Source: Escherichia phage vB_Eco_J-01. Taken from it: DNA of 64,000 nt. The position numbers and the translations under genes were made by a program. Each line of letters starts with the position of its first letter. Positions within the stretch are counted from its first letter, which is position 1. This document shows positions 10,394-13,136 of the stretch, piece by piece. The stretch is taken from sequence record PQ438393.1; one strand, written 5' to 3'. The notes beneath the pieces are model-generated. The model had not been told where the DNA came from. It searched no databases and saw nothing but the letters and a program-made list of their open reading frames with translations.

Positions 10394-10466
10394 TCGTGGT
10401 AAACGGAGTCGAACCGTTGTTTCTCGATTATCGGTCGAGTGTACTAACCATCTGTACGATACCACA
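10394..10466 (-). tRNA. tRNA, anticodon GAU (Ile), C33 in loop
   Basis: hand-folded cloverleaf: 7-bp acceptor, T-arm AACGG-TTCGACT-CCGTT, anticodon loop CCGATAA, CCA encoded. Confidence 0.55.
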
Positions 10467-10474
10467 ATAATTGG

Positions 10475-10550
10475 CAGCAAGGTGAGGAATCGAACCCCCT
10501 GATCTATGGTTTGGAGCCATATTGAGTACCATACTCTTTTAAATCTACCC
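10475..10550 (-). tRNA. aberrant tRNA-like, anticodon-arm CCA (Trp-like)
   Basis: canonical T-arm and encoded CCA; anticodon hairpin TATGG-CTCCAAA-CCATA; acceptor and D-arm could not be paired by hand. Confidence 0.3.
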
Positions 10551-10615
10551 GGCTATGAGTTCCTTGAAGTGTCAATGTAACTTAATCATTACACCAGAAG
10601 GGAGGTATTTATTGG

Positions 10616-10691
10616 AGGCGGGAGTAGGATTTGAACCTACGATCTCCAGCATATGAAACTGGCGAGGACGACCAGACTCCTCTATCCCGCA
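10616..10691 (-). tRNA. tRNA-Met/Ile2 (anticodon CAU)
   Basis: cloverleaf with T-loop TTCAAAT, anticodon loop TTCATAT, 6 of 7 acceptor pairs, CCA encoded. Confidence 0.7.
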
Positions 10692-10709
10692 CAATCTGTA
10701 ATAATTTGG

Positions 10710-10782
10710 TTGATAGTAAGAGGATCGAACTCTTCTCGCAATGCCTTATGAAAGCACTCGAAACGCCAGCTTCACACTATCA
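10710..10782 (-). tRNA. tRNA with anticodon CAU (atypical anticodon/D arms)
   Basis: perfect 7-bp acceptor, T-arm AAGAG-TTCGATC-CTCTT, CCA encoded; anticodon loop TTCATAA. Confidence 0.55.
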
Positions 10783-10873
10783 ATGGCTAACCCTTTACAA
10801 CCCGTCTTGGCGTGGTATCCTTAACAGGACGGTGGATATCCGTTGCAAACCCTATGATATCTCTTAGATATGG

Positions 10874-10955
10874 TAGCTAAGGTGAGACTCGAACTCACAA
10901 TCCCCTGGGGCAATACGTTCTAAGCGTATCGTGTATACCATTCCACCACTTAGCC
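10874..10955 (-). tRNA. tRNA-Leu (anticodon UAG), type II
   Basis: acceptor pairs, anticodon arm ATACG-CTTAGAA-CGTAT, long variable arm with cccc/gggg stem, CCA encoded. Confidence 0.7.
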
Positions 10956-11035
10956 ATAATAAGTACACCACTGTAAGAAGCCTCAATGTGCTATTGACAG
11001 TTAACCAAGTCTACTCCTTGGATGGTGTTATTTGG

Positions 11036-11107
11036 TACAGAGAGATGGTAACGATCCATCCTTTCTACCTTTTCAGGGTAGCACTAATCCGTCTCAGCTA
11101 TCTCTGC
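11036..11107 (-). tRNA. tRNA-Phe (anticodon GAA), non-canonical T-loop
   Basis: acceptor gcagaga/tctctgt, anticodon arm CTACC-CTGAAAA-GGTAG, T-loop ATCGTTA, CCA encoded. Confidence 0.6.
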
Positions 11108-11116
11108 AAAATTTGG

Positions 11117-11189
11117 TCAGTGCGGCAGGACTCGAACCTGCGACCCGAAGCATCCAAAGCTCCCACGCTACCAACTGCGCTACGCACTG
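11117..11189 (-). tRNA. tRNA-Pro (anticodon UGG)
   Basis: perfect acceptor cagtgcg/cgcactg, D-loop AGTTGGTA, anticodon loop TTTGGAT, T-loop TTCGAGT, CCA encoded. Confidence 0.8.
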
Positions 11190-11199
11190 TAAATATTGG

Positions 11200-11271
11200 C
11201 TGGAGATCTAGGAATCGAACCTAGTCATCACGACTTCAAAGGCCGTTGCCTTCCCACTAGGCTAATCTCCA
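11200..11271 (-). tRNA. tRNA-Gln (anticodon UUG)
   Basis: perfect acceptor tggagat/atctcca, anticodon loop CTTTGAA, T-loop TTCGATT, CCA encoded. Confidence 0.8.
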
Positions 11272-11373
11272 ATAAAACTAAAAATCACTTAAAAAGAACC
11301 GCTAGAGTTTGAAGGAGAAAACCATGAGCGAAAAGAGAAATTTTCTCTAGCGATTCCATTTAAATAATCTTGG

Positions 11374-11445
11374 AGCGAGTAACAGGACTTGAACCTGCAC
11401 CTGGAGGGTGGAAACCTCATATGCTACCATTAACACTATACCCGC
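11374..11445 (-). tRNA. tRNA-Gly (anticodon UCC)
   Basis: acceptor gcgggta/tactcgc, anticodon loop TTTCCAC, T-loop TTCAAGT, CCA encoded. Confidence 0.7.
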
Positions 11446-11454
11446 TTAACAATA

Positions 11455-11487
11455 TTACTCTAACATATTATTAGCCCCTTTGTCAAG
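11455..11487 (-). promoter_or_regulatory. sigma70-like promoter (TTGACA-N17-TTAGAG) upstream of tRNA-Gly
   Basis: minus-strand TTGACA with 17-bp spacer, same architecture as other promoters in this window. Confidence 0.35.
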
Positions 11488-11500
11488 AGGCTTTTGATAT

Positions 11501-11824
11501 TTATTTTAAAATAGTAGATGAACCACGTCTGTTTAGATATGCAATAGTAAAGTCCAAATCACCTATTTCTTCAGGTTCCCACTGACCTTCTAAGCCATAA
11601 CAAGAACAATGATATGCGTGTACTTCATAAAACAAAGATGTTTTCATATCATAAAAATAAACGTGAGATTCGCCTTCATAATATGCACAATCATAAGTGG
11701 CAGAAAGAATTACAATGTTATCCTTATCTAACTCTACTTCATAATATCTTTCAACATCTTCAATATCATCAAAACCATCGAAAACATTGATATTAAAATA
11801 TTTCTCTAACTCTTTTTCTGTCAC
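11501..11824 (-). CDS. hypothetical protein embedded in the tRNA cluster (Cys/His/Tyr-rich)
   Basis: track ORF runs into tRNA-Thr; trimmed to an in-frame GTG preceded by AAGGAG. Confidence 0.4.
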   Translation of the reverse strand: MTEKELEKYFNINVFDGFDDIEDVERYYEVELDKDNIVILSATYDCAYYEGESHVYFYDMKTSLFYEVHAYHCSCYGLEGQWEPEEIGDLDFTIAYLNRRGSSTILK

Positions 11825-11849
11825 ATACACTCCTTTAGAGTTAAATTGG

Positions 11850-11921
11850 TGCTCCCACAAGGACTCGAACCCTGATAAGTTGCTTACAAGGCAACCGTAA
11901 TAGCCGTTATACGATAGGAGC
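11850..11921 (-). tRNA. tRNA-Thr (anticodon UGU)
   Basis: acceptor gctccta/tgggagc, anticodon arm GTTGC-CTTGTAA-GCAAC, T-loop TTCGAGT, CCA encoded. Confidence 0.75.
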
Positions 11922-11996: not shown

Positions 11997-12003
11997 TATT
12001 TGG

Positions 12004-12085
12004 CGATGGATCAAGGATTTGAACCTTGCTAGAACTTTCGTTCACGGATTAACAGTCCGTCGCCCAACCACTAGGCCAATCCATC
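12004..12085 (-). tRNA. tRNA with anticodon GUU (Asn-like) and a long type-II-like variable arm
   Basis: perfect acceptor gatggat/atccatc, anticodon arm ACGGA-CTGTTAA-TCCGT, about 15-nt variable arm, T-loop TTCAAAT, CCA encoded. Confidence 0.55.
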
Positions 12086-12095
12086 TTTAATTTGG

Positions 12096-12179
12096 TGCAG
12101 GTAGTTGGACTCGAACCAACGAAGCCCCGAAGGGCAAGAGATTTACAGTCTCCAGCAATTGCCGCTATGCGATACCTAC
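12096..12179 (-). tRNA. tRNA-Tyr (anticodon GUA), type II
   Basis: acceptor pairs, anticodon arm GGAGA-CTGTAAA-TCTCT, variable arm ccc-ttcg-ggg, T-loop TTCGAGT, CCA encoded. Confidence 0.75.
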
Positions 12180-12187
12180 GTGTTTGG

Positions 12188-12260
12188 TACATCGTGAAGG
12201 ATTCGAACCTTCGACCTTGGAGTTAAAAGCCCCTTGCTCTACCAACTAAGCTAACGATGT
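12188..12260 (-). tRNA. tRNA-Lys (anticodon UUU)
   Basis: perfect acceptor acatcgt/acgatgt, D-arm GCTT-AGTTGGT-AGAGC, anticodon loop CTTTTAA, T-loop TTCGAAT, CCA encoded. Confidence 0.75.
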
Positions 12261-12389
12261 ATAAATTATCTTTAAAATAGCCAGTGTTTGCGGCACTTGA
12301 CTATGGGATATCGGTAAGATGGTGGGGGCCATCTGCCGAAAGTTTACTCTATTAAAGTAAGATGACAAGCTACATTAAAGATAACTTGG

Positions 12390-12472
12390 CGGTAGATGTA
12401 GGACTTGAACCTACACGCCGTTTCCGACGACAGTTTAGCAAACTGTTGTGGCTACCATTTCACCAATCTACC
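12390..12472 (-). tRNA. tRNA-Ser (anticodon GCU), type II
   Basis: acceptor ggtagat/atctacc, anticodon arm ACAGT-TTGCTAA-ACTGT, long variable arm, T-loop TTCAAGT, CCA encoded. Confidence 0.75.
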
Positions 12473-12480
12473 GTTTTTAA

Positions 12481-12645
12481 TTATTCAAAACAACCGGAAT
12501 CTTTTTGTTCTTCTTTTACCATACGAATATTCTTACCATCTTCAGATTGTTGAAGATTAGAATACTCATAAACAACTTTATTATTTACAATCTTAACTCC
12601 GGTAACAACCTGTCCAATAGTTTTATAATTCATAAAATTACTCAT
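12481..12645 (-). CDS. small hypothetical ORF inside the tRNA cluster
   Basis: track ORF 12481-12681 trimmed so it does not overlap tRNA-Ser; no clear RBS. Confidence 0.2.
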   Translation of the reverse strand: MSNFMNYKTIGQVVTGVKIVNNKVVYEYSNLQQSEDGKNIRMVKEEQKDSGCFE

Positions 12646-12654
12646 TGAATTTGG

Positions 12655-12741
12655 AGGAAGATAATGGAGTCGAACCATCACCGTATCGCTACAATGGGCC
12701 AGGGTTCAAACCTGGTTGCGCACCGCTGCGCCCTACCTTCC
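12655..12741 (-). tRNA. tRNA-Ser (anticodon UGA), type II
   Basis: acceptor ggaaggt/atcttcc, anticodon arm CCAGG-TTTGAAC-CCTGG, long variable arm, T-loop TTCGACT, CCA encoded. Confidence 0.75.
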
Positions 12742-12754
12742 AGTTATTATACTT

Positions 12755-12787
12755 TAAATCTAACATAAAACTATCTTGCTTGTCAAG
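12755..12787 (-). promoter_or_regulatory. sigma70-like promoter (TTGACA-N17-TTAGAT) upstream of tRNA-Ser
   Basis: minus-strand -35/-10 hexamers with 17-bp spacer. Confidence 0.35.
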
Positions 12788-12807
12788 TAGTTTTTAAAAC
12801 TTTTTGG

Positions 12808-12886
12808 CCGGGGTGACAGGATTCGAACCTGCATACTCCAATTACTCGGTTAACGCCTGATTAGAAGTCAGGTGAGATACACCCCG
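12808..12886 (-). tRNA. aberrant tRNA-like (anticodon-like loop UCU, Arg-like)
   Basis: perfect 7-bp acceptor cggggtg/caccccg, canonical T-arm, CCA encoded; the only clean internal hairpin CCTGA-CTTCTAA-TCAGG sits where the D-arm should be, with an unpaired 23-nt stretch before the T-arm. Confidence 0.35.
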
Positions 12887-12894
12887 TTTTCATA

Positions 12895-12927
12895 GTAACT
12901 ATAACAAAAAACTAAGTAAATGTCAAG
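12895..12927 (-). promoter_or_regulatory. sigma70-like promoter (TTGACA-N17-TATAGT)
   Basis: minus-strand -35/-10 hexamers upstream of the tRNA-like gene at 12808-12886. Confidence 0.35.
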
Positions 12928-12946
12928 ATATTTTTTTAGGTGTTGG

Positions 12947-13029
12947 TGCAAGTGGAGGGATTCGAACCCTCAAGCATTTAAGCGTTGCGTTTTAAGCACA
13001 ATGTGTATCACCAATTCCACCACACTTGC
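12947..13029 (-). tRNA. tRNA-Leu (anticodon UAA), type II
   Basis: perfect acceptor gcaagtg/cacttgc, anticodon arm TTGTG-CTTAAAA-CGCAA, long variable arm, T-loop TTCGAAT, CCA encoded. Confidence 0.7.
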
Positions 13030-13063
13030 ATATAGGAGATGCATAGCACCTCCTTTTAAATGG

Positions 13064-13136
13064 TGGTTCCCCAGGGTTACAATCCCTGCCCTCAACACTT
13101 ATGAGGTGTGCGCTCTCGTCAGTGAGCTATGGAACC
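13064..13136 (-). tRNA. tRNA-like with anticodon CAU and non-canonical T-loop
   Basis: 6 of 7 acceptor pairs, anticodon loop CTCATAA, T-arm CAGGG-ATTGTAA-CCCTG, CCA encoded. Confidence 0.45.

Follow-up and report, generated by a model that had tools for sequence, protein, structure and literature searches.

A tRNA array of a phi92-like coliphage carries conserved structural variants, among them a putative arginine tRNA with a proposed permuted core

Are tRNA genes that break the structural rules of their kind remnants of decay, or variants that a phage keeps? This question is raised by a large tRNA array in Escherichia phage vB_Eco_J-01 (PQ438393.1), which lies on the minus strand at 10391-13136 of the 64,000-nucleotide stretch that we analysed (the window). 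An earlier note, made from the letters alone, had described about 18 tRNA genes here with several odd members. We counted 18, of which 16 are called by ARAGORN at default settings and two are non-canonical, and the comparisons below indicate that these are real tRNA genes whose oddities are conserved rather than signs of decay. One of the two non-canonical genes, a tRNA-Arg(UCU) that we call ArgX (12805-12886), is the only member of the array without a closed D hairpin, which the other 17 genes possess. We consider it probable that this array of a phi92-like coliphage supplements or replaces host tRNAs, that its structural variants are kept by selection, and that ArgX is its AGA decoder, with a permuted core.

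Run on the whole window, ARAGORN placed all 16 of its default calls on the minus strand and within the array. The Rfam model RF00005 (gathering threshold 29 bits) gave 14 matches scoring 38.6-68.9 bits, namely 13 of the ARAGORN genes and one extra gene at 12808-12886, which is ArgX and has the lowest score of the 14. The threshold was not reached by 10707-10782, 12652-12741, 13061-13136 and 10472-10554; the last of these, a Trp(CCA)-like gene, was added by ARAGORN at a 90% threshold (-ps90), which called it as 10472-10549. Further ARAGORN calls made in intron or mitochondrial mode or at a lowered threshold (13483-13564, 13172-13252, plus strand) had poor stems and no CCA, and were rejected. 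The 3' CCA is encoded in all 18 genes, where the earlier note had said nearly all, and its gene positions were right except for a 3-nt offset that arises solely because it left out the CCA. It had also named rejection by covariance models as evidence against the atypical genes. Rfam does reject three of the ARAGORN genes (10707-10782, 12652-12741 and 13061-13136); two of them have homologues in other phages, one with a covarying tertiary pair, and 10707-10782 was found in the closest relatives only. The oddities that the note had flagged are real and are conserved in related and unrelated phages, while ArgX, the Trp-like gene and a class-II-like Asn gene were under-described in it.

ArgX reads CGGGGUG UA U CUC A CCUGA-CUUCUAA-UCAGG CGUUAACC GAG UAAUUGGAGUAU GCAGG-UUCGAAU-CCUGU CACCCCG G CCA. 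After the 5' strand of a 7-bp acceptor stem, U8, A9 and a further U lead into a 3-bp helix (CUC/GAG), inside which lie the anticodon arm and the linker CGUUAACC. This helix is followed by UAAUUGGAGUAU, a D-loop-like segment with GG and A20, and then by a canonical T arm, G73 and CCA, with no D hairpin. In the Rfam tRNA alignment, 4 nt of ArgX fall on the 15 D-arm positions, a 20-nt insertion follows the anticodon arm in the variable region, and a closed D arm between positions 9 and 26 is absent.

In a BLAST search with 265 matching records, FelixO1-like, T5-like, Vequintavirinae and jumbo coliphages as well as phages of Klebsiella and Streptomyces carried the element at 82-86% identity, and none of the 40 GenBank records listed has a tRNA annotated under it. 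Together with pattern scans of IMG/VR, which gave 52 and 61 loci, we obtained 52 distinct homologues, from coliphages, from Salmonella, Klebsiella and Streptomyces phages, and from metagenomic viruses. There was no match in 5,426 complete E. coli genomes, and a scan of 185,579 bacterial and archaeal species genomes, one for each species, returned nine matches, only four of them true members and all of these on contigs of metagenome-assembled genomes (MAGs). A scan with a 14-base pattern was discarded, as it returned mostly chance matches (true members in 4 of 58 new loci). Scored with a model of the family, true members reached 88-104 bits, divergent ones 56-78 bits and ordinary tRNAs at most 36 bits; the gene in the window scored 102.9. 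ArgX appears to be spread over phages of Proteobacteria and Actinobacteria, and possibly of Bacteroidota. HNH homing endonuclease genes lie directly 3' of ArgX (FelixO1, L003, 354-684; EK80, L005, 391-682), the FelixO1 gene overlapping it, and among the loci examined, including L071:1458-1532, one MAG copy is interrupted within the T-loop. This suggests homing-endonuclease traffic at ArgX.

Covariation supported the proposed fold. Across 32 distinct sequences 99.1% of cells were paired, with two-sided changes at 14 of 20 pairs, and in a covariance-model alignment of 48 distinct sequences the values were 98.9% and 18 of 20, with changes in all four helices. When the partners were slid by one to three columns as a control, pairing fell to 32-47%. 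The 7-bp acceptor, 5-bp anticodon and 5-bp T stems were paired in 99.1%, 98.3% and 99.2% of cells and showed two-sided changes at 15 of their 17 pairs; these three arms have the canonical layout, with anticodon and T loops of 7 nt each. In the 3-bp helix (11-13/40-42), pair 12:41 was UA in 35, GC in 7, AU in 4 and CG in 1 of the 48 sequences, and the UCG variant has CAG/CUG at this helix. The D-loop-like segment, U-A-A-N-Y-G-G-A-G-U-A-U, was invariant at 10 of 12 positions in 32 sequences taken from a scan that left the segment unconstrained. Pairing of the CUC at 11-13 with a GAG at 49-51 was considered and rejected: phage BoomerJR has CGC together with an upstream GCG, while its GGAG is unchanged.

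The family is specific for arginine by its anticodons. In scans that left the anticodon free, the 52 distinct members carried UCU (49), CCU (1), UCG (1) or ACG (1), which are all Arg anticodons. Every loop has 7 nt with U33 and A37, C35 is present in 52 of 52, and position 36 is U or G. Among the 48 aligned sequences an A stands directly 3' of the GG doublet in 47, the discriminator is G in 27 and A in 18, and CCA is encoded in 35, being missing in the members from Streptomyces phages. The identity set of the E. coli arginyl-tRNA synthetase (ArgRS) consists of A20, its major determinant, with C35, U36 or G36, and A73 or G73. Because A20, C35, U36 and G/A73 are kept in ArgX, charging by ArgRS is predicted, and in space the A after GG would fall on the A20 site.

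Codon usage points to the same role. In 67 long open reading frames (ORFs) of the window, which has a G+C content of 37%, AGA shows the strongest excess of any codon over E. coli K-12, at 10.2 against about 3.6 per 1000 (2.8-fold; the E. coli values here and below are approximate values of the Kazusa table). CUA (2.6-fold) and ACA (2.6-fold) follow, then CCU, GUA and UCU, and AUA (1.6-fold) and AAU (1.5-fold) are also enriched. The anticodons of the array fit the codons that the phage uses more than E. coli does, as a comparison called for by the earlier note now shows; they match AGA, CUA, ACA, CCU/CCA, UUA, CAA and others, with Leu(UAG), Thr(UGU), Pro(UGG), Ser(UGA), Leu(UAA), Gln(UUG), Lys(UUU), Gly(UCC) and Tyr among the tRNAs supplied. 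None of the annotated tRNAs is a decoder of the top codon, AGA, and ArgX would fill this otherwise empty slot. A canonical Arg(UCU) was found in none of 31 fetched loci that hold at least 10 tRNAs and ArgX (some of these loci overlap or are near-identical), and many of them have a canonical Arg tRNA with ACG, UCG, CCG, GCG or CCU. FelixO1, with 25 canonical tRNAs, has Arg(ACG) as its sole canonical Arg tRNA, and L017, a contig with a disrupted ArgX, has a canonical Arg(UCU).

How could such a chain fold as a tRNA? The segment G40-U54 of ArgX, G-N-G-U / A-A-Y-U-G-G-A-G-U-A / U, matches canonical positions 10-13, 14-21 and U48, and is joined straight to the T stem; its canonical equivalents are A14, R15, Y16, Y17, G18, G19, A20 ... 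A21, and then U48. Nucleotides C11-C13 pair as 23-25 would, the element's own A14 stands in place of nucleotide 26, and a linker of 3-8 nt (CGUUAAYN in the majority; variants have UCA, AGUC or AGAAA) leads back to position 10. From this we infer that the D/anticodon domain is circularly permuted inside an otherwise normal tRNA. The chain would run from U8 A9 through the 3' strand of the D stem (22-25), nucleotide 26, the anticodon arm and the linker, and would continue with the 5' strand of the D stem (10-13), the D-loop (A14 A15 Y U G18 G19 A20 .. A21), U48 and the T arm. The inner domain would thus be opened between 21 and 22 and closed between 43 and 10, within a normal acceptor/T frame. 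In yeast tRNA-Phe, nucleotide 9 lies in the groove beside 23, 21 stacks on U8:A14 beside 48, and 44-45 contact 26 and 10:25; the three new junctions of ArgX are therefore sterically plausible. The tertiary partners U8:A14, A15:U48, G18/G19 with the T-loop, and A21 are retained, as is A20, and a normal L shape is predicted.

Removal of an intron would be another way to a canonical tRNA, and we rejected it: there is no intron-like element, the insert is only about 20 nt, and the canonical order could be restored only if the RNA were cut at three places and ligated three times, which makes it most likely that the rewired topology persists in the mature RNA. In its acceptor stem and T arm ArgX almost matches a canonical tRNA-Arg(UCU), that of the T5-like phage TrudiGerster, implying that ArgX derives from, or recombines with, ordinary phage Arg tRNAs. 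We would expect ArgX to be processed by RNase P, charged by ArgRS and used to decode AGA. We put at about even the chances that it represents a new, phage-specific structural class of functional tRNA, with a permuted core and retained tertiary partners, that works with ordinary bacterial RNase P, ArgRS, EF-Tu and ribosomes.

The second non-canonical gene, the Trp-like one, combines an 8-bp acceptor stem with a 4-bp T stem, and has a 10-nt connector AGAUUUAAAA, a 5-bp D hairpin with a UGG loop, G73 and CCA; Rfam tRNA-Sec matches it weakly, at 22.4 bits. It is found in Justusliebigvirus, in other Stephanstirmvirinae of Klebsiella and Citrobacter, and in Ounavirinae (Hafnia phage SarahDanielle and contig L034), and among the GenBank records listed none has a tRNA annotated under it. 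Six distinct sequences all share the anticodon loop CUCCAAA; among them the D hairpin covaries at four of its five pairs, and pair 8:65 is formed in every case, as UA (3), AU (2) or CG (1). A 7/5 geometry was rejected, its alternative pair 49:65 being paired in two of the six. The covariation of 8:65 and the broken first T-stem pair together point to an 8/4 tRNA with a 10-nt connector. With a variable region of 6 nt and a CCA anticodon, it has no long variable arm and no Ser identity.

In the tRNA-Ser(UGA) gene position 8 is A, the 5-bp D stem closes a 4-nt loop, the variable arm has 7 bp and the discriminator is U73. The gene has no RF00005 match, and its tRNA-Sec score of 35.3 bits is under the gathering score of 47. 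Its minimum-energy fold is 8/4 (Sec-like or allo-tRNA-like); four phage homologues have A8 for U8, and in all of them U65 can pair with either A8 or G49, so that covariation fits 8/4 and 7/5 alike. Its long variable arm and Ser-type discriminator U73 are of the allo-tRNA type, and the gene fits the published phage (8/4) tRNA-Ser. A Ser(UGA)-like gene in L034 (9-87), a FelixO1-like IMG/VR contig, has a 7-bp variable arm with a GAAA loop and about 8 nt at the site of the D arm; it is annotated as tRNA-Ser(tga) in Hafnia phage SarahDanielle (L086), and may be a second kind of D-arm-reduced phage tRNA.

The Asn(GUU) gene, of 85 nt, carries a 3-bp Ser-like D stem (GCC/GGC), G73, and a variable arm made of a 4-bp stem and a GAAA loop. 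Between five genera-level relatives (from Justusliebigvirus, Phapecoctavirus, Seunavirus and Klebsiella phages) this helix is paired in 100% of cells and covaries at three of four pairs. The anticodon arm and G73 fit the asparaginyl-tRNA synthetase (AsnRS). Long-variable-arm tRNAs of 83-96 nt for Lys, Gln, Ile(UAU), Trp and Asn, several with arms that end in GAAA loops, also occur in unrelated contigs (L021, L044, L055, L059, L061, L066 and L068). Cellular tRNAs for these five amino acids belong to class I.

The other atypical members keep the cloverleaf and depart from it at single positions. Three genes have CAU anticodons, as the earlier note had said. Bacteria and many phages use this anticodon in the initiator tRNA, in the elongator Met tRNA and in tRNA-Ile2, where C34 is converted to lysidine, and the three genes fit one initiator-like and two elongator/Ile2-type tRNAs. 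CAU #3 has a U1xC72 mismatch, G2-C71, C3-G70 and A11:U24 and a body like that of E. coli tRNA-fMet, and is without the three G-C pairs of the anticodon stem. It is kept at 75-95% identity in phages of E. coli, Caulobacter, Erwinia, Aeromonas, Synechococcus and Streptomyces, with compensatory T-stem changes in Paula and JLBYU50. CAU #2 has U1-A72, G8 and a canonical T-loop; it is confined to the closest relatives (21 records), and other sequence takes its place in L020, L039 and L052. CAU #1 has the T-loop AUUGUAA, a D-loop GA for GG opposite U55 U56, and a 4-bp anticodon stem, and fits the elongator Met or Ile2 type. A firm assignment of all three genes was given up, as sequence supports an initiator-like role for 10613-10691 only and the other two are inseparable by sequence; given the enrichment of AUA, one of CAU #1 and CAU #2 is probably Ile2.

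The two unusual T-loops flagged by the earlier note, AUUGUAA in CAU #1 and AUCGUUA in Phe, both have A54 and U58, so the universal reverse-Hoogsteen pair T54:A58 is swapped to A54:U58 and not lost. A homologue of CAU #1 in the T4-like Erwinia phage FBB1 has the D-loop GG and the T-loop AUCGUAA where the window has GA and AUUGUAA; both partners of a tertiary pair have changed, from G19:C56 to A19:U56. At 13094 (position 43) of this gene the window has U43 and five close relatives have C43, opposite C27 and unpaired either way. Homologues of the Phe gene in a T5-like Salmonella phage, an Acinetobacter phage and Bacillus phage Hobo keep its T arm, GGAUCGUUACC, unchanged and carry compensatory changes in the acceptor and anticodon stems; at 11037 (position 71) the window has G1.U72 and five close relatives have G1-C72. 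Among 414 distinct ARAGORN tRNAs in the fetched phage loci, 21 have T-loops of the A54:U58 type (ATCGTTA in 10, ATCGTAA in 7, ATTGTAA in 2 and ATCGTTC in 2), on Phe, Asn, Asp, Met, Val, Thr and Gly tRNAs. The third flagged feature, C33 in the Ile(GAU) anticodon loop CCGAUAA, is shared by 5 of the 15 distinct Ile(GAU) genes present in the fetched phage loci, among them those of KB57-like Klebsiella phages and of an unrelated metagenomic contig. In L039, a phi92-like IMG/VR contig, the Ile(GAU) body carries the loop CUCAUAA (CAU, U33) in place of CCGAUAA (GAU, C33), a two-base switch between an Ile2-type and an Ile1-type anticodon. These patterns argue that C33 and the A54:U58 loops are recurrent, selected phage variants, not sequencing noise or decay.

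At least seven members of the array would then be structural variants that are specific to phages and preserved by selection: Ile for its C33, Phe and CAU #1 for their swapped T-loops, and further Ser(UGA), the Trp-like gene, Asn and Arg. Since the departures are conserved and interacting positions change together, they are compatible with function and maintained by selection. The array would be transcribed from four sigma-70-type promoters, interleaved with three small ORFs and ended by a terminator, and during infection would supplement or replace host tRNAs for codons heavily used by the phage, with ArgX as the decoder of AGA. What might select for odd structures? About 6.5 kb from the array, at 19476-21366 on the plus strand, lies an RNA-repair cassette that resembles T4 Pnk and Rnl1, which repair tRNA cut by an anticodon nuclease. 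Together with the T5 tRNA-Lys, which is resistant to the nuclease AriB of PARIS and neutralises that system (PMC11464382), this cassette suggests tRNA-cleaving nucleases as the selective agent. The odd structures would confer insensitivity to tRNA-cutting nucleases, either of host defence or of the phage's own shut-off. Degradation of host tRNA by a phage shut-off, reportedly seen in a vibriophage study, is an alternative selective agent. By analogy, nuclease insensitivity is the most likely reason for the odd structures, and it is the weakest step of the account.

Several points weigh against this account. The support for the array genes is wholly comparative, and most ArgX homologues were gathered by sequence patterns, which biases the sample to conserved motifs. 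RNAalifold predicts the three long helices of ArgX only, the 3-bp helix being too weak; that helix rests mainly on pair 12:41, its other two pairs showing single exceptions. RNAfold favours a mini-hairpin (38-41/46-49) over helix 11-13/40-42. We rejected this hairpin because covariation does not support it: pairing covers 81.7% of its cells, and 16 of 30 sequences break pair 41:46. On contig L032 a canonical Arg(UCU) sits beside ArgX, which shows that both can occur together. We identified no nuclease directed at tRNA-Arg(UCU), at the T-loop or at the D arm. We know of no bacterial system that uses a tRNA without a closed D hairpin, and a 2020 review of non-canonical tRNAs places loss of the D arm in mitochondria only (PMC7609411).

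Other explanations have to be set against the functional one. The atypical members, and ArgX above all, might be tRNA mimics: decoys for a nuclease, a modification enzyme or a synthetase, or substrates for non-ribosomal arginyl transfer. This would account for a molecule without a closed D hairpin, which to our knowledge no bacterial ribosome or EF-Tu system accepts; phage tRNAs can act against defence systems, and the repair cassette nearby suggests pressure from tRNA nucleases. A decoy needs neither a full acceptor stem, discriminator and encoded CCA (present in 35 of 48 ArgX members) nor a canonical 7-nt anticodon loop with U33 and A37, however, and ArgX anticodons span four Arg isoacceptors on one body and complement the canonical Arg tRNAs of each phage; AGA is the most enriched codon of the phage studied here. 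We regard mimicry as unlikely. The idea that the odd features reflect relaxed constraint strikes us as similarly improbable. On this reading the tRNAs act for minutes, need be neither fully modified nor long-lived, and the variants spread by recombination among phage tRNA clusters with no benefit against nucleases. That the same variants turn up for many amino acids in many phage groups is what cassette shuffling predicts, HNH homing endonuclease genes adjoin these tRNAs, and the slot at 10707-10782 varies even between close relatives. Neutral drift, however, predicts scatter and not recurrent identical solutions. Purifying selection on the variant positions is strong: from coliphages to a Bacillus phage the T arm GGAUCGUUACC does not vary while the stems covary, the tertiary partners 19:56 of CAU #1 change together, and the D-loop-like segment of ArgX is nearly fixed.

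For the Asn(GUU) gene a further possibility is charging by seryl-tRNA synthetase (SerRS), or by another synthetase for class II tRNAs, with Ser inserted at Asn codons. SerRS does not read the anticodon, and the Ser-like D arm, G73 and the conserved variable-arm hairpin would suit it; there is also the precedent of nev-tRNAs, nematode class II tRNAs with non-Leu/Ser anticodons that insert Leu at Gly or Ile codons in vitro (PMC3333845). The phage has no second Asn tRNA, though, and AAU is enriched. G73 is the discriminator of AsnRS too, and the anticodon stem-loop is like that of E. coli tRNA-Asn. Compared with E. coli tRNA-Ser, the acceptor has A2:U71 and not G2:C71, and the 4-bp variable stem is shorter. 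We think mischarging quite unlikely. The view that ArgX, the Trp-like gene, CAU #1, CAU #2 and Ser(UGA) are decaying pseudogenes or chance tRNA-like folds can draw on three ARAGORN genes scoring below the RF00005 threshold, on the two genes that ARAGORN misses by default, on the restriction of CAU #2 to the closest relatives, and on a genuine tRNA remnant at 11925-12000. Each helix of ArgX, the Trp-like gene and Asn shows compensatory changes, which already contradict this view for these genes, and CAU #1, Phe and Ser(UGA) are conserved across families; anticodon loops are invariant and CCA is encoded. We give it very little credence.

The surroundings are those of a known kind of locus. Across the 3.2-kb cluster region, identity is 99.2% with Escherichia phage JLBYU50 and 97-98.5% with Paula, phi92 relatives and other Justusliebigvirus (Stephanstirmvirinae), and 486 phage records match; by sequence, the window belongs to a Justusliebigvirus (phi92-like) coliphage. 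Four GenBank records (MG065639, MG065656, MG065645 and MG065689, "Campylobacter phage A150/C3/A145/A110a") are 98% identical to phi92-like coliphages across the array and are probably mislabelled or contaminants. The TTGACA-N17 promoters that had been proposed before several genes were found as four minus-strand sites with a perfect TTGACA and spacers of 17-18 nt (Table 1), and the window holds 11 matches to TTGACA-N17-TWNRNT where 1.7 would be expected. ArgX starts 11 nt after the end of P2, a near-consensus promoter-like site of its own. No Pfam match was obtained for the three array ORFs (88, 50 and 107 aa) or for a downstream ORF at 9896-10186.

Three spacers on the minus strand have folds of their own. 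Between Asn and Thr, the remnant at 11925-12000 (z = -3.1) has a 6-bp acceptor-like stem without CCA, a T-arm-like hairpin whose loop, UAUCAAAU, has 8 nt, and a palindromic TCTAGA hairpin where the anticodon arm would be expected; ARAGORN in mitochondrial mode called a D-armless "tct" tRNA here (11928-11996), which we rejected, the remnant having no anticodon loop or CCA. The spacer between Ser(GCU) and Lys (12261-12386) folds at -33.6 kcal/mol (z = -4.7 against shuffled sequences) into a 17-bp closing stem round three hairpins, a cloverleaf-like four-way junction. In the third hairpin the loop, CCGCAAA, has 7 nt; there is no T-loop and no CCA, and the structure is kept in close relatives only. 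Between Gly and Gln (11272-11370), the spacer folds into an imperfect hairpin of some 24 bp (z = -4.1), possibly a site for RNase III-type processing that would separate two sub-operons.

Table 1. Features of the tRNA array and of the RNA-repair cassette, with positions in the window
Feature	Position	Strand	Detection and remarks
tRNA(CAU) #1	13061-13136	-	ARAGORN; no Rfam match
tRNA-Leu(UAA)	12944-13029	-	ARAGORN and Rfam
ArgX, tRNA-Arg(UCU), non-canonical	12805-12886	-	Rfam tRNA, 38.6 bits; covariation
tRNA-Ser(UGA)	12652-12741	-	ARAGORN; no RF00005 match; sub-threshold tRNA-Sec
tRNA-Ser(GCU)	12387-12472	-	ARAGORN and Rfam
tRNA-Lys(UUU)	12185-12260	-	ARAGORN and Rfam
tRNA-Tyr(GUA)	12093-12179	-	ARAGORN and Rfam
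tRNA-Asn(GUU), long variable arm	12001-12085	-	ARAGORN and Rfam
tRNA-Thr(UGU)	11847-11921	-	ARAGORN and Rfam
tRNA-Gly(UCC)	11371-11445	-	ARAGORN and Rfam
tRNA-Gln(UUG)	11197-11271	-	ARAGORN and Rfam
tRNA-Pro(UGG)	11114-11189	-	ARAGORN and Rfam
tRNA-Phe(GAA), T-loop AUCGUUA	11033-11107	-	ARAGORN and Rfam
tRNA-Leu(UAG)	10871-10955	-	ARAGORN and Rfam
tRNA(CAU) #2	10707-10782	-	ARAGORN; no Rfam match
tRNA(CAU) #3, initiator-like	10613-10691	-	ARAGORN and Rfam
Trp(CCA)-like gene, non-canonical	10472-10554	-	ARAGORN -ps90; weak Rfam tRNA-Sec match
tRNA-Ile(GAU) with C33	10391-10466	-	ARAGORN and Rfam
P1, promoter-like	13440-13469	-	TTGACA-18-TAAGAT; ahead of small ORF and first tRNAs
P2, promoter-like	12898-12926	-	TTGACA-17-TATAGT with upstream TG; 11/12 matches
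P3, promoter-like	12757-12786	-	TTGACA-18-TAGATT; ahead of Ser(UGA)
P4, promoter-like	11457-11486	-	TTGACA-18-TAGAGT; ahead of Gly
Small ORF, 88 aa	13144-13410	-	equivalent of Phi92_gp110
Small ORF, 50 aa	12481-12633	-	equivalent of Phi92_gp111
Small ORF, 107 aa	11501-11824	-	Paula_0203
Terminator-like hairpin, then U run	10259-10277	-	array end
Metallophos phosphoesterase	19476-20027	+	cassette gene
T4 Rnl1-type RNA ligase	20029-20961	+	cassette gene; PF09511
P-loop kinase	20962-21366	+	cassette gene; AAA_33

As a whole the array is a member of the class of tRNA clusters known from T4, T5, FelixO1 and phi92, with its own promoters and with small ORFs and homing endonuclease genes interleaved. 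As in those clusters, the codons matched by the anticodons are common in the AT-rich phage and rare in its host. In these respects it is no different, and because records of relatives, including Paula and JLBYU50, annotate 15 or 16 of its 18 tRNAs, the array as such was already known. As with the T5 tRNA-Lys that evades PARIS (PMC11464382) and the anticodon-loop variants of mycobacteriophages (PMC10264068), the phage copies may differ from host isoacceptors where nucleases read. C33 in Ile(GAU), the altered stems and the nearby repair cassette would fit nuclease-resistant tRNAs. The known resistant tRNAs are point substitutions in the anticodon stem-loop, whereas here the T-loop, variable arm, acceptor/T geometry and D-arm topology are altered. 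(8/4) tRNA-Ser and tRNA-His have been described in bacteriophages, in a paper in which "Trp" nowhere appears (Mukai et al., NAR 2017; PMC5389517). Ser(UGA) shares with these and with allo-tRNAs A8, a long D stem with a short loop and the Sec-like Rfam match. The Trp-like gene shares the covarying 8:65 pair, but differs in its CCA anticodon, its lack of a long variable arm, its 10-nt connector and its 3-nt D loop.

D-armless mitochondrial tRNAs, such as metazoan mt-tRNA-Ser(AGY/UCU) (PMC7609411), resemble ArgX in having no closed D hairpin, in keeping the T arm and acceptor, and in an anticodon helix lengthened by pairs between two connectors. Unlike them, ArgX has a canonical T-loop (UUCGAAU) and retains equivalents of U8, A14, A15, G18 G19, A20, A21 and U48; its covarying 3-bp helix replaces the D stem, and the bases that make the D-loop/T-loop contact are not lost. 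A 12-nt segment with these core bases kept implies a normal elbow. ArgX is also non-organellar and Arg-specific, and would use bacterial factors that are not specialised. The Asn(GUU) gene shares with nev-tRNAs a long variable arm on a class I amino-acid anticodon, as do the Lys, Gln, Ile, Trp and Asn tRNAs of the other phage contigs; unlike nev-tRNAs it has a short arm, and an anticodon arm and discriminator that fit AsnRS. In Cyanidioschyzon merolae, Soma and colleagues are said to have found, in 2007, whole tRNAs permuted in the gene, with a circular intermediate that restores a normal mature tRNA. Those genes and ArgX both depart from the canonical order of segments, but ArgX has the two acceptor strands at the ends of the gene and CCA at its 3' end, and the internal D/anticodon domain alone is permuted. 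The literature that we searched held nothing on a phage tRNA without a D arm, a permuted core, A54:U58 T-loops or a class II Asn tRNA, an absence that is no proof of novelty. Against that literature, the ArgX family, with its rewired core and Arg specificity, and the 8/4 Trp-like gene appear to be new, as does the recognition of A54:U58 T-loops, C33 Ile and variable-arm Asn as recurrent phage variants.

ArgX, the most probable AGA decoder of this phage, is missed by standard tools, and the same gene has been missed in at least 200 sequenced phages, among them FelixO1-like, T5-like and jumbo coliphages and Streptomyces phages; counts of phage tRNAs and analyses of codon compensation are biased as a result. 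If ArgX works as proposed, it would be the first non-organellar tRNA without a closed D arm to function in bacterial translation, and the connectivity of the cloverleaf would be dispensable there. This would bear on the evolution of tRNA structure and on how tRNAs are read by RNase P, synthetases, EF-Tu and the ribosome, and would offer a naturally distinct scaffold for genetic-code engineering. Were the wider account true, ArgX, the A54:U58 and C33 variants, the extra arms and the 8/4 branches of this one array would form a parallel set of structurally distinct phage tRNAs. The presence of several conserved departures in one array near an RNA-repair cassette makes the idea of nuclease-shaped phage tRNAs testable.

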